Positions 3,884 through 31,212 of a stretch of 64,000 nt of DNA are shown here, piece by piece. The stretch lies in assembly GCA_963717045.1 (NCBI GenBank), contig CAVQVD010000010.1:406255-470254 (forward strand), written 5' to 3'. The DNA is from an uncultured delta proteobacterium (GTDB taxonomy: Bacteria; Desulfobacterota; Binatia; Binatales; Binataceae). The notes under the pieces were generated by a model. It searched no databases and was not told where the DNA came from. It saw nothing but the letters and a program-made list of their open reading frames with translations. Made by a program: the position numbers and the translations under genes. The stretch's first letter is position 1. Every line of letters begins with the position of its first letter.

Positions 3884-4501
3884 CCAACCGAGCGTGCGCA
3901 GCCGGCCGAGCAGCTTCTGTTGTGAGATTTCGGCGCCCACTCTCCACTGGTTAGCACAAGCGACGGCGATGTCACCAAAGCGACCAAAAGCGAGGGTTGG
4001 AAGTGGATCGATCGGCGCTTTGGTCGCGCCTGCGACAACCGTTAACAAAGCTAATGTTGCTAATGCGAAGATAACAGTTAAACTTTCCATAATGAGATCC
4101 GAGATCGAGCAACCCGTGAATCCTGCGTTTTGCAATCGGAACCTCATTCCCTCGAGTCGCGTTAACAACGAGTCATCCCGATGTCATCTGAGTACCCCGG
4201 GAATGAATGCTCAAAGCGGCGGCATGCGCGCGCTCAATGGGCAGATTAGATCGCGGTAAGCGGGAATCGTGAGACAAAAGGGCTTGGGATTACTGGCATA
4301 AATGCTGCTTTAGAGTAGACGCAGAATAGAGTCGAGCCGCATCTAAATCCCTGAAGCTTTGCAAGTAGATCGCAGGTTCATTCTACAAAGTTAGTTGATC
4401 GATTAACTGGGTGCCTACCCGGTACCGACCGTTTAGCCCTGCTGACTGCAGGGAATCAACCGGCGAACGTCGGTGACGTTTTTCAGGAGAAAAGGGATAA
4501 C

Positions 4502-5041
4502 GTGAAATTTTTTGATCAGTGGAACAAGTTTAGCGAGGCGATGCTCGAGATGCCGTTCGTGGCCGTCAGAAGCTTCTTCGCGCAGGGGCGCGAACAGGAA
4601 AGCGAACCGAGCGCCGAGGAGCAACTGCGGCGGGCGGGATGGAAGGCCTACGACGCCTGGATGGAACTGCTGGGTGAGTCTGCCAACGGCCTCTACGCGA
4701 GTCCTGAAGTTGGAGCTTCGGTGGGTCGCTCGATGGAATCCTCGCTCAAGTGGCAGCGCTTTGGCTCGGCGATGACAGGGGCGTTTTTCGCTTCGCTGTG
4801 GCCGGCGGTGGGGCTGCCTTCAGCAGCCGAGTTGACCGAACTGCGCGCCGAAGTGGGGGCGCTTCGCGACGACCTGGCGATGGCTCGCCTGGAAGCCGAG
4901 GAAGCGCGCGCTGCGGAAGCCCTGCTGCCGGTGGGCGAACATCAGTTGGGCGATCAGCTTACTGCGATGTGGAACGGCGGATGGAGTCCGGCGGTAGCGC
5001 CGTTCGTCCGCAAGCGAGGCGATGATGCCCCAGCCAACTAA
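4502..5041 (+). CDS. PHA synthase second subunit, PhaE/PhaR-like (class III/IV)
   Basis: 179 aa, W-rich N-terminus (FFDQWNKF..WKAYDAWMEL) and coiled-coil C-terminus. Overlaps phaC by 20 bp. Confidence 0.5.
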   Translation: MKFFDQWNKFSEAMLEMPFVAVRSFFAQGREQESEPSAEEQLRRAGWKAYDAWMELLGESANGLYASPEVGASVGRSMESSLKWQRFGSAMTGAFFASLWPAVGLPSAAELTELRAEVGALRDDLAMARLEAEEARAAEALLPVGEHQLGDQLTAMWNGGWSPAVAPFVRKRGDDAPAN

Positions 5042-27382: not shown

Positions 27383-27442
27383 CTATTCCGATAGTGGGCG
27401 CCTCACGCATGACGCGACGATTCGCGCAATCGTGAGACGACA

Positions 27443-29488
27443 CTAATTACTGCGGCGAACGTTCCGCCTGCCAACATAATAACGAAAGGAACTATCGCAG
27501 CATTGTATCTCGACAAAAGATATTCCGACCAGGGCGGTGGAAAGAATATAGCCGGTGGGGATCAGCGCAAATGCCGCGAAGGTCGCTCGCTCTTTCAGCA
27601 TCGGGATCAGCGGGATGCTCGCGAGCGCTATCCATGGAATGTATCTCCATGCAACGCCGAAGGCATCTTCCAGACCTTTACGCCAAAGCAAACTGTTCAC
27701 ATTTGCCTGAAGTAGTGGCGAAGACTCCAGGTTATTGTCGTACTCAAAAGGCGTCGAGGCGTACGGCATAAACGTGACGGGATTCAGAAAGTATTGAATC
27801 CAGGTCTGCTGCAAAGAATAGGAGAGGTATTTCCACGGCGACAGATGAATGCCTTCTAGCGCTGTGCGTTTCATGAGCGCTTCTACTTGTGCATCAGTCA
27901 ACCCCTTCAGTTCGAGCAAGTTCTGGATTTTCCAATGCGGAACACCATAAGGATTGAGCGGCGCAATCAACTTCAGCAATCTGGAAGTGGCCGGCGCCTG
28001 CTTGTCCAATAGGCACTGATCGGTGATGACGCGATTGTACAGATGCCGCCCGACTGAATTACTCAGCGCGAAATTACCTGATCTGATACCGAACCAGAGG
28101 ATCGGCATCGCCAGAATGACGATGACAAGCGCGGCGACCGCGCTGAACCTTCGGAGACCGATTGCCCGAGGCTCCGCGCCAATCATAATAGCCAGCATCG
28201 CCGGCAGCGCCGCCGCATATGGTATGACCCGGGCGAGTGTAGCCCACGCCAGCAATGAGCCCGCCAAGATACCGTCGCGAAGCCGTCCGTGCTCACGATA
28301 GTTAAATGCGAAATAGAGCGCTCCCATCATTCCAAACAGCGCCACGTTTTCCGACAAAAGTCCCTGCGGCAGCACCAACGTCGGCGCCGCGCCGCCGATT
28401 ATCAACGCGGTAGCGAAAGAGATCGTCGTCCCGGCGCAGCGCTCGAGCAGCCTGTAAGACCACCAGATTGTCGCGATCATCATGATGTGCTGAAGCAGCG
28501 TGATGGCTGAACCAGTGAAGGTGCGCGAGACCAGATAGCCCAGCCCTACCAGGATTGGATACCCAGGCGGGAAATACGCTGGCATCCCGTGCAGGAAGTT
28601 CGTGTCCAGCGTGGGGAGTTGCTTTAGGCTGTCGGTGAGAAGGCCGACAGGTTGCGTCGCCCAGAAGAGGAGGTGAAGCGTGGCGAGGTACATTAATAGC
28701 CAGAGGTCGAGGCGCGGGCGGCGCATCCACGGCCGGATAGCCGCGGCGAGTACGACAAACATTATTAGCCATGCGACGAAAGATCCTCGGGGCCACCGCG
28801 TGGGCGCGGGCAGGTCCACCGCCACGAACCGCATGTAGCGGCCGCCGCGCTCGCAGCGGTCGTTCCACACCGCCTCGCGGCGGTTCTGCCACACCGCCTC
28901 GCGGCGGTTCTGCCACACCGCCTCGCGGCGATTCTGCCACACCGCCTCCCGGCGGTTCTGCCCTAGCGCCTCGGGTGTGGAGCCAACATAGCGGTAGATA
29001 CTCAGGTTGCCGCAATGCCCCAGCCGGTCGAACAGAATGACCGCGCTCCTCGCGTTGAAAGAGATCGATGCGGACTCCAGCGTATCGGGATGGCTTAAAG
29101 TCCGATCCCAATAGCTTACCCAAGCGCCCTTCAATTCTGTATTTTCCCTGCGTAGTGCTTTGCCATCAGCGAGGAGCCTGGTAATCAAAATTCCATTGGC
29201 GGGAGCCTTTGCCGATCCGGACACCAGGATGGTGAACCGCTGCTCCTCTTGCGGAGTCTTGTGTGTTACTCCGCTGAGGCAGAGTGAAGCTGACCAGGCG
29301 AGAAGAATCGTTGAGGCCGCGGTGAACAGAGCAATCGCCAGGGCATTGACCCCCAACGGTTCGCGCGACGCCGAGGTGCGAAAAAATCCGCCGAGACGCC
29401 TCAGTGAAGGAAAGTAGGAGCGCGTTCTATCCGTCGCCTTTCTACACCCCGCCGAACCAGTCATAGCCCTGGTCTTCCCAATAGCCAC
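27443..29488 (-). CDS. large polytopic membrane protein, GT-C-like (possible PMT/ArnT-type glycosyltransferase) with an N-terminal soluble region and an internal 8-aa tandem repeat
   Basis: 681 aa; ~10 predicted TM helices in the middle, C-terminal soluble domain; (EAVWQNRR)x4 encoded by the 24-bp repeat. Family assignment is tentative. Confidence 0.5.
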   Translation of the reverse strand: MAIGKTRAMTGSAGCRKATDRTRSYFPSLRRLGGFFRTSASREPLGVNALAIALFTAASTILLAWSASLCLSGVTHKTPQEEQRFTILVSGSAKAPANGILITRLLADGKALRRENTELKGAWVSYWDRTLSHPDTLESASISFNARSAVILFDRLGHCGNLSIYRYVGSTPEALGQNRREAVWQNRREAVWQNRREAVWQNRREAVWNDRCERGGRYMRFVAVDLPAPTRWPRGSFVAWLIMFVVLAAAIRPWMRRPRLDLWLLMYLATLHLLFWATQPVGLLTDSLKQLPTLDTNFLHGMPAYFPPGYPILVGLGYLVSRTFTGSAITLLQHIMMIATIWWSYRLLERCAGTTISFATALIIGGAAPTLVLPQGLLSENVALFGMMGALYFAFNYREHGRLRDGILAGSLLAWATLARVIPYAAALPAMLAIMIGAEPRAIGLRRFSAVAALVIVILAMPILWFGIRSGNFALSNSVGRHLYNRVITDQCLLDKQAPATSRLLKLIAPLNPYGVPHWKIQNLLELKGLTDAQVEALMKRTALEGIHLSPWKYLSYSLQQTWIQYFLNPVTFMPYASTPFEYDNNLESSPLLQANVNSLLWRKGLEDAFGVAWRYIPWIALASIPLIPMLKERATFAAFALIPTGYILSTALVGISFVEIQCCDSSFRYYVGRRNVRRSN
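28856..28975. repeat. tandem 24-bp direct repeat (~5 copies, 3 perfect) inside the CDS, in frame
   Basis: GGCGGTTCTGCCACACCGCCTCGC repeated; flanking copies are degenerate. Confidence 0.9.
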
Positions 29489-30137
29489 CGGTGCGATTGG
29501 GCAGAAAGTTGACCTCGGTAAGATACTTAACGTTTTTGTAGCCGAGCTTGACCGCGGAGTACACTCTCGCCGGCGCCCCGTGATTGGGATGCAGGTCGTG
29601 CCCGTTCATCCCATAGGCGAGCAAAGTCTGCGGATGAAGCGCGCTGCCGAGATCCCACGATGACCAGTAGTTCGCGTCGAACGAACGGAACTCTACATAG
29701 CGCACCCGCGGATCGACACCGACCGCGCGCGCGAGTTCGCTCAGCCGCACGCCGTGCCACGCCGCGACTGCGGACCAGCCCTCCACGCAATGATGGCGAA
29801 CGCGCATATCCGTGCGCGGCATCGCCTTCAACTGCTCGAGCGTGAATACCCTCGGCCGTGCAACCATCCCACCGACCTTGAGCGACCAGGCAGCGGGCGG
29901 AAATGGCATCGTGTCCGCGATGAAGTAACTCGGAAACGCAGGCTCGGGGGTCAGGTCTTTCTCGGGCGCCTCTGGCGCGAGGCGCGAGGGCGAGAAGATC
30001 AGGCTTTCGAAATGTTCGTTGACGCGCAGCATCACGTTGAGAAAGGACGAAACTGCACGGGGCGTGTCGCACCCGCCTAGCAACGAAGCCGCCGCGAAGC
30101 CGGTAAGCATTTTTCGACGCGTGATTAACCTAGCCAC
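29442..30137 (-). CDS. msrP: periplasmic molybdopterin-dependent oxidoreductase, sulfite-oxidase family (MsrP/YedY-like)
   Basis: Tat signal (RRKMLTGFAAASLLGG) and Mo-domain motifs (RVRHHCVEGWS, GAPARV). Short form without a dimerisation domain, like MsrP. Confidence 0.75.
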   Translation of the reverse strand: MARLITRRKMLTGFAAASLLGGCDTPRAVSSFLNVMLRVNEHFESLIFSPSRLAPEAPEKDLTPEPAFPSYFIADTMPFPPAAWSLKVGGMVARPRVFTLEQLKAMPRTDMRVRHHCVEGWSAVAAWHGVRLSELARAVGVDPRVRYVEFRSFDANYWSSWDLGSALHPQTLLAYGMNGHDLHPNHGAPARVYSAVKLGYKNVKYLTEVNFLPNRTGGYWEDQGYDWFGGV

Positions 30138-30831
30138 GCTGCCCTCCGGTGATCATCGCCAGCAGCTCTCGCGGATGCAGCAGCACCAGCACGACGTGAT
30201 TCACTACAAACATCGCTATAAACACCAGCCCCAGCAGATGGATGACGCGGGCTGAATCGTAGCCACCGAACAGTCTCAATAGCCAATGAAGCTGCACCGG
30301 CTTGTAAATAGCCAGTCCCGAGAGCACCTGCAGGGTGATGATTATCACCACGGAGCTGTAGGCGAACCGTTGCAAGCCATTGTAGAAGTCGGGCGGCGGT
30401 GGCGTTTTGAAGACGCGCAGATAGTAGCCGAACATATGGAGCGCGTTACGAGCGTCGCGGACAGGGAGAAAGAGCCGCCGGCGCCATTCGCCGCGGCCGA
30501 AAAAATACGCGATGTAGATCACGCCGTTCAGCACCAACAACCAGGCGATCGCGAAATGCCAGTGCCGCGCGCCCGCGAGCCATCCGCCGATCGTCAGCCA
30601 CGATGGCGGCGCAACTCCCTGCCACGGATACCATGCGTATTTTGCGCCCTGAGGTCCCAGTGAAGGATAGGCGGCGAAGATTTCCAGTCCGCTCGCCGCC
30701 ATCAGGACGATAAACAGTACATTCAGCCAGTGGTTGAGCCGGATTGTGAGCGGCTGGATGCGCCGTCCCCTGAAGCGCGGGTCCGCGACCGTTTCATTCA
30801 TCGGAGCGGTGCGCATCGGAGTGGTCCGCAT
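30130..30831 (-). CDS. cytochrome b561-family membrane protein, likely electron donor to the MsrP-like enzyme
   Basis: 233 aa, 4-5 TM helices, N-terminal RLNHWLNVLFIVLMAASG typical of Ni_hydr_CYTB/cyt b561. Overlaps msrP by 8 bp. Confidence 0.6.
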   Translation of the reverse strand: MRTTPMRTAPMNETVADPRFRGRRIQPLTIRLNHWLNVLFIVLMAASGLEIFAAYPSLGPQGAKYAWYPWQGVAPPSWLTIGGWLAGARHWHFAIAWLLVLNGVIYIAYFFGRGEWRRRLFLPVRDARNALHMFGYYLRVFKTPPPPDFYNGLQRFAYSSVVIIITLQVLSGLAIYKPVQLHWLLRLFGGYDSARVIHLLGLVFIAMFVVNHVVLVLLHPRELLAMITGGQRG

Positions 30832-30882
30832 TGGAGTGATCTGCCTCGGGGTCTTTTACCGGCCGTACCGGATGCGCCATTT

Positions 30883-31212
30883 TTACTCGCCCGTGGGCAT
30901 GCCCTCGGGCTTCATCATCGGCTTGGGCTTGCCGCCGTCCATGATGGTTCCGTCCATCATCATCATCTGCCCGTCCTTTAGATGCTCCACTTTGCCACCC
31001 AGTTTCCTGATCGTGCCATCGGGCATCACGAGCGCGCCATCGGACATCGTGATGCTTGCGGTCATCGGGTCCATCGCCTTGCCAGCTTTCATCATCATCA
31101 TTTTGCCGCCCTGCATGATGACTCCATCCATGCCGGCAGCCATCGGACGCGCGGCCATCAAAACCATCGCAAGCGCTGATGCTTCTAACAGTAATAGTGC
31201 TCGCCGAGGCAT
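30883..31212 (-). CDS. secreted methionine-rich peptide (MrpX-like)
   Basis: 109 aa, signal peptide, ~22 Met (20%), runs MMMM twice, internal DGxIMxGGK repeats. GAAGGT Shine-Dalgarno. Starts 3 nt after the GNAT stop. Confidence 0.6.
   Translation of the reverse strand: MPRRALLLLEASALAMVLMAARPMAAGMDGVIMQGGKMMMMKAGKAMDPMTASITMSDGALVMPDGTIRKLGGKVEHLKDGQMMMMDGTIMDGGKPKPMMKPEGMPTGE

Follow-up and report, generated by a model that had tools for sequence, protein, structure and literature searches.

Introduction

Variable-number tandem repeats (VNTRs), or minisatellites, are known from coding regions of bacterial genes, such as the 24-bp repeats in region X of Staphylococcus aureus spa and the MIRU-type in-frame repeats. 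Like the array that we describe here, these consist of head-to-tail units whose length is a multiple of three, they keep the reading frame, and their copy number varies among strains. In both cases, the central units are homogenised and the units at the edges are degenerate. However, our array is predicted to lie in a periplasmic domain of an inner-membrane enzyme from an uncultured environmental host, instead of in a wall-spanning or surface-exposed protein, and it has only three length alleles, of which the commonest is stable.

A second system for comparison is found in Neisseria, Haemophilus, and Campylobacter, where simple sequence repeats (SSRs) make glycosyltransferase genes phase-variable (PMC5953494, PMC12721329). 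These genes resemble ours in having an internal repeat tract whose length can be changed by slipped-strand mispairing. Their units are 1–7 nt long and shift the frame or alter the promoter, which leads to ON/OFF switching, whereas the unit studied here is 24 nt long and always in frame. Moreover, most phase-variable glycosyltransferases are cytoplasmic GT-A or GT-B enzymes, whereas our protein is a putative GT-C enzyme. Our literature search for in-frame repeats in periplasmic glycosyltransferases returned only papers on classical SSR phase variation.

Results and discussion

A 24-nt tandem repeat within a coding sequence

We analyzed a 64-kb stretch of DNA (the window) from an uncultured soil bacterium of the Binatia. 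Tandem Repeats Finder (TRF) located an array at positions 28845–28973 with a period of 24, 5.3 copies, 88% matches, and a score of 186, which was the highest of the 25 TRF rows for the window (the runner-up scored 60). The 24-nt spacing was reproduced by a separate repeat search, which confirmed the tandem repeat that an earlier note on this DNA had described. That note had counted three perfect copies; in its register, the unit GGCGGTTCTGCCACACCGCCTCGC was perfect only twice (28879–28902 and 28903–28926), and the third copy (28927–28950) had two mismatches. The unit had no match in 100 shuffled sequences and none elsewhere within the 64 kb.

On the minus strand, the array encodes the peptide EALGQNRR-(EAVWQNRR)x3-EAVWNDRC. 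In the register GGCAGAACCGCCGCGAGGCGGTGT, four core units of 24 nt each (28867–28962, minus strand) are of types A-B-C-C and encode QNRREAVW four times. Type A is a CGG variant (for CGC) and type B an AAT variant (for AAC); together with a GAA/GAG variant found in another allele, all three unit variants were synonymous. The core units are flanked on each side by one degenerate unit. The 5′ one (..PEALG; 28963–28986, minus strand) takes in the hypervariable codons 171–172, which are discussed below. The 3′ one (GGAACGACCGCTGCGAGCGCGGCG; 28843–28866, minus strand) encodes (W)NDRCERGG, corresponds to the conserved second β-strand of a hairpin (strand 133–139 in an AlphaFold2 model of the domain, pLDDT about 85), and bears the conserved Cys212. 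It is probably the founder copy of the array. With head-to-tail units of a multiple of three nucleotides inside a translated sequence, the array is a coding VNTR, a class already known.

Start, end, and integrity of the gene

The repeat is contained in a called open reading frame (ORF) of 681 amino acids (27443–29488, minus strand), both ends of which need correcting. The start is likely the ATG at 29464, which is shared by all close alleles and overlaps the end of the upstream molybdopterin oxidoreductase gene by 23 nt. The corrected coding sequence spans 27403–29464 (minus strand), with its stop codon at 27403–27405, and encodes 686 amino acids after the removal of one extra base. The array is internal to this coding sequence, 500 nt from the start.

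If translation began instead downstream of the repeat, at MRFVAV, the array would be noncoding, an alternative that the earlier note had named as fatal to its view of an in-frame repeat. We reject this start because the upstream region is conserved across the family and under purifying selection. About 200 residues upstream of the repeat, made up of a transmembrane anchor and a soluble domain in which Cys159 and Cys212 are nearly invariant, are conserved throughout an alignment of 21 homologues reaching down to about 30% identity, and among close alleles the N-terminal part had dN values of 0.008–0.012 against dS values of 0.06–0.11. Over the whole gene outside the array, dN/dS was about 0.1.

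The extra base lies at 27525–27528 (minus strand), where the window reads CTGGTCGGAATAT and the population reads CTGG-CGGAATAT or CTGG-TCGAATAT. This 1-nt insertion, present in the window only, shifts the frame of the last transmembrane helix, which is thereby cut from the called ORF together with the conserved EYLLSRYNAAIVPF motif; removing one base brings back the conserved end with EYLLSRYNAAIVPF and gives the 686-residue protein. The gene in the window's genome might then be a decaying pseudogene, in which the frameshift is real and the longer array reflects relaxed constraint, and a protein identical to that of the window (P0036), with an internal TTG start and the frameshift kept, has been deposited in NCBI/ENA. 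We consider this very unlikely. The window reads GTCGG where all eight other alleles read G-CGG (Ala-Glu) or GTCG- (Val-Glu), which is the signature of two merged haplotypes, so the extra base is probably a consensus artefact. There were no further disabling changes in the gene, its dN/dS is low, and the five-unit allele on contig L001 is intact. Isolated frameshifts also occur in related MAGs of the MFD series, which are Nanopore assemblies (PMC12313526).

In those MAGs, the orthologues on L016 (about position 4440) and L018 (about position 4790) each carry one such frameshift, and the one in L016 coincides exactly with the homologous site of the repeat. Separately, the C-terminal cytoplasmic tail varied among alleles through homopolymer indels (TT/TTT and AA/AAA) at about 27403–27440 of the window, 3200–3250 of L001, and 2180–2245 of L013. 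These indels produce at least three tail sequences and stop positions, and in some alleles the tail overlaps a convergent FAD-monooxygenase gene.

A putative glycosyltransferase of the GT-C fold

The protein matched the Pfam family PMT_2 weakly, with 30.8 bits against a cut-off of 26.1 (E = 4e-7), and NCBIfam LA_3751/2 with 15 bits against a cut-off of 200. A Foldseek search with the full-length model (pLDDT 70) returned EmbB, EmbA, EmbC, ALG3, STT3, AftA, Pmt4, and PglB as top matches, all of them GT-C enzymes, with probabilities up to 1.0 and TM-scores of 0.2–0.44. A profile search against the sequences of the PDB gave no meaningful match to any solved structure. We regard the protein as an uncharacterised, putative GT-C-fold glycosyltransferase, in line with the GT-C-like identity proposed in the earlier note.

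In GT-C enzymes, the catalytic acidic residue is found in the periplasmic loop that comes first in the core. As in ArnT/PMT_2, the Emb/Aft arabinosyltransferases, STT3/PglB, and ALG3, the core of our protein is predicted to be a multi-pass membrane domain whose first extracytoplasmic loop bears an invariant Asp. This residue, D286 in ORF numbering (codon 28631–28633, minus strand), directly follows the transmembrane helix 257–278 of the AlphaFold2 model and is invariant in the 21 aligned sequences, which makes it a candidate catalytic residue. Unlike the named GT-C enzymes, the protein has an additional N-terminal transmembrane anchor and a β-sandwich before the core, and its sequence similarity to solved GT-C structures is nil and its TM-scores to them are low.

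The homologues that we retrieved ranged in identity from 97% to about 30%, and the relatives are MAGs of the Binatia (Candidatus Binatota). An exhaustive profile search yielded 1053 representatives at E < 1e-3, of which 131 were at E < 1e-30; among the matches listed, most of the best ones were 600–650 amino acids long and covered almost the whole profile, from about position 20.

Position of the repeat in the predicted fold

AlphaFold2 modelling of the full-length protein from a 21-sequence alignment gave a pLDDT of 70 and a pTM of 0.72, and a separate model of the domain gave a pLDDT of 79; both models rest on only 21–22 sequences. In ORF numbering, the full-length model comprises a transmembrane helix (46–71), a β-sandwich (83–226), and a helical membrane core. 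The helix corresponds to the N-terminal anchor (amino acids 37–64 from the ATG; 29273–29356, minus strand), which is preceded by an Arg/Lys-rich tail with 8 Lys or Arg among its 36 residues. The next two transmembrane helices are joined by a short loop, which has 3 among 10. By the positive-inside rule, this tail and loop would be cytoplasmic and the β-sandwich, which holds the repeat (28784–29272, minus strand), periplasmic. A structure search with the β-sandwich alone found no confident structural relative.

Within the predicted sandwich, the repeat region sits between strands 162–167 and 204–209, with residues 173–186 modelled as disordered and residues 188–202 as a low-confidence helix. 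In the domain model, the last degenerate unit (EAVWNDR) forms a confident strand, and the added units have a pLDDT of 54–65; over both models, the added units are coil plus helix with a pLDDT of 45–65. The models thus place the repeat as an expansion of one β-hairpin inside the periplasmic β-sandwich. The earlier note had read it as a linker joining the N-terminal region to the transmembrane core; this is not supported, and the sandwich continues past the repeat.

Origin of the array in one lineage

The distance between the columns of Cys159 and Cys212 was 18 amino acids in 64 of the 99 full-length family members, and distances of 38, 54, or 62 amino acids occurred in the repeat lineage only. 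The repeat is confined to a cluster of sequences at least 96% identical. At the repeat site, relatives at 53–77% identity (MAGs that bear the labels 'uncultured delta proteobacterium MFD...' and 'Candidatus Binataceae') read HCGHLSISGPDGTIWQDTSKDC. Because the hairpin is lengthened only in the repeat lineage and the relatives have HCGHLSISGPDGTIWQDTSKDC, the array appears to have arisen recently, in that lineage alone, when the DNA for the second hairpin strand was duplicated in tandem.

Copy number differs between close strains

The cluster at 90% identity around the closest homologue has ten members, whose proteins carry two, four, or five EAVW units; DNA was compared for eight of them. The earlier note had suggested comparing copy number across strains or MAGs, and the number indeed varied. 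Two, four, or five units are present on nine independent contigs that share about 99% nucleotide identity and belong to the same species-level population. The window has the four-unit allele A-B-C-C, all five units of the ENA contig L001 are identical and of type C, and seven JGI contigs from seven different samples have a two-unit A-C array, in one case with the further synonymous GAA variant. Outside the array, the haplotypes differ at 9–36 of 1842 nt (98–99.5% identity), and the neighbouring genes are 99–100% identical at the protein level; judging from these sequences, the carriers are strains of one species-level population. The A-C array is unchanged in the seven two-unit alleles despite 0.5–2% nucleotide divergence of their flanks, and all nine alleles are in frame. 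Copy number is thus polymorphic between close strains, in a comparison that also sets short JGI contigs (two units) against long contigs (four and five units), so that a contribution of assembly technology is conceivable. A scan of metagenome contigs with the 3′ anchor GAGGCGGTGTGGAACGACCG returned only 11 chance matches, all in unrelated genes.

The differences in copy number could in principle be assembly artefacts around one true allele, arising from short-read collapse or long-read miscounting. The two-unit alleles are all on JGI contigs of 2–5 kb and the four- and five-unit alleles on contigs of 953 kb and 86 kb, the perfectly periodic L001 array extends over 122 nt and offers no anchor inside, and indel errors occur in this same gene in the window and in the related L016 and L018. 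In the window, however, the variants A and B anchor the array, which is perfectly periodic over no more than 66 nt at a time. Its difference from the two-unit form is unlikely to reflect collapse, because a collapsed array would, by our reasoning, read A-B-C and not A-C; reasoning on de Bruijn graphs, A-C would result from collapse only at k ≤ 36. Furthermore, the same A-C array was recovered from seven independent samples on differing flanking haplotypes, and the alleles change in length by full units of 24 nt, unlike nanopore errors, which are indels of 1–2 nt. We therefore consider an artefact very improbable.

Next to the array, codon 171 (ORF numbering) has four states among the nine alleles, namely Thr, Ile, Arg, and Ala (ACA, ATA, AGA, and GCA), and codon 172 has two (Pro and Arg). 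Both lie at about 28951–28986 (minus strand). Located two or three residues ahead of the array, codon 171 is the most variable of the protein and its only multi-state site, and its variability could indicate selection on the loop.

About ten single-nucleotide differences, mostly synonymous, are clustered at 29123–29369 (gene nucleotides 96–342), where the window differs in the same way from L001, L013, and L014 at a density of about 5%; in the rest of the gene, the density is about 0.6%. The pattern suggests a short recombination tract. Mutagenesis beside the repeat was considered as a cause of the higher N-terminal dS and was rejected, since the cluster lies away from the array.

A palindrome in every unit

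The palindrome ACCGCC-GCGA-GGCGGT occurs four times in the array, and single-stranded DNA folds were more stable than those of shuffled sequences (z = -3.2 and -3.0). With four copies of a 6-bp stem and a GCGA loop, and fold z-scores of about -3, the array might be a nucleic-acid-level element of GC-rich hairpins with GNRA-like loops, for instance one that is REP-like or that makes translation pause, and might lie in the gene by chance. Several observations make this extremely unlikely. Neither the unit nor the 16-nt palindrome recurred elsewhere in the 64 kb of the window, in contrast to REP-like elements, which have many dispersed and mostly intergenic copies in a genome, and Rfam had no match anywhere in the window. 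The unit derives from local ancestral coding sequence, and the palindrome follows from the codons for N-R-R-E-A-V (AAC CGC CGC GAG GCG GTG), which, on inspection, look typical of this GC-rich gene. Finally, variant B (AAT) and the GAA variant of L022 weaken the stem, losing pairing and keeping the peptide. Because these two unit variants preserve the peptide at the expense of the stem, selection appears to act on the protein and not on the hairpin.

Tolerated expansion or selected length change

We favour, as the probable explanation, a lineage-specific coding minisatellite, in which the hairpin expansion is tolerated and its variation is neutral or nearly so. In one species-level lineage of the Binatia, the 24 nt for the second strand of a hairpin stapled by a disulfide (ancestral ...G-x-IWQD...C) would have been duplicated head to tail. 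We infer that whole steps of eight codons were then gained and lost through replication slippage or unequal recombination, probably aided by the GC-rich palindrome in every unit. The extra units may form a poorly ordered loop or a helix projecting from the domain, which the fold would tolerate. Alleles of two, four, and five units would coexist in this way, with purifying selection on the rest of the gene.

Alternatively, the array could be an adaptive, contingency-like locus, in which fast change in the copy number of the Trp/Arg-rich octapeptide is selected because it alters the reach or specificity of the enzyme's periplasmic acceptor-binding domain. Three copy-number alleles lie within about 1% nucleotide divergence, the L001 array is fully homogenised, the adjacent codons 171–172 are hypervariable, and the units form hairpins, all of which would fit such a locus. 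However, the A-C array has stayed the same across seven diverged alleles, the models show the added units as disordered or assign them low confidence, and the loop is expanded in no other member of the family among the 99 full-length sequences. A predicted periplasmic site would also not be exposed to phages or predators, although the glycan that the enzyme makes could itself be a surface structure. Phase-variable loci switch ON and OFF by frameshift or promoter spacing, and no such switching is expected from changes that are always in frame. We thus regard an adaptive locus as unlikely, and the earlier note's description of the repeat as the hallmark of a contingency locus is not supported, because all alleles are in frame, the two-unit form is stable in seven strains, and the site is periplasmic according to the models. 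In a more specific form of the adaptive proposal, the octapeptide array together with codon 171 would be a selected length tuner that diversifies acceptor recognition among co-existing Binatia strains. We hold this to be very doubtful; if true, it would be a contingency-like mechanism, in a soil phylum that is uncultured, by which the specificity of an enzyme is varied instead of its expression. For the tolerated minisatellite that we favour, copy-number variation that is neutral or nearly so remains the most likely reading.

Gene neighbourhood

The GT-C gene is the last in an apparent operon with genes for a DUF6799 protein, a cytochrome b561, and a molybdopterin oxidoreductase, which are linked by overlapping stop and start codons (29442–31212 of the window, minus strand; 470–2195 of L014). 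The cytochrome and the oxidoreductase form an MsrPQ/YedYZ-like pair. The oxidoreductase gene (29442–30137, minus strand) lies directly upstream, its end overlapping the start of the GT-C gene, and the neighbourhood is the same in close alleles. It is absent from the homologues at 53–77% identity, and a functional link between the GT-C gene and the upstream molybdenum oxidoreductase and cytochrome b was rejected for that reason.

The cytochrome b561-like gene has a second in-frame tandem repeat, of 15 nt and 3.4 copies, at its 5′ end (30799–30849, minus strand). Each unit of this repeat contains an ATG (M-RTTP-M-RTAP-M-NETV), giving three alternative start codons, and the copy number is equal in L014.

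Implications

For sequence databases, our analysis indicates that the deposited gene model is wrong at both ends, with P0036 truncated at its start and carrying the probable consensus frameshift at 27525–27528. The putative GT-C family with an N-terminal β-sandwich comprises more than 100 clusters at 50% identity and has no characterised member. The array itself opens no new mechanism, and as a VNTR it is of modest interest because the class is already known. If our reading holds, it would be a natural example of a periplasmic β-hairpin that tolerates stepwise insertions of eight residues, and the repeat would offer a VNTR strain marker, sizable by PCR, for an uncultured population of Binatia sampled in soil metagenomes.
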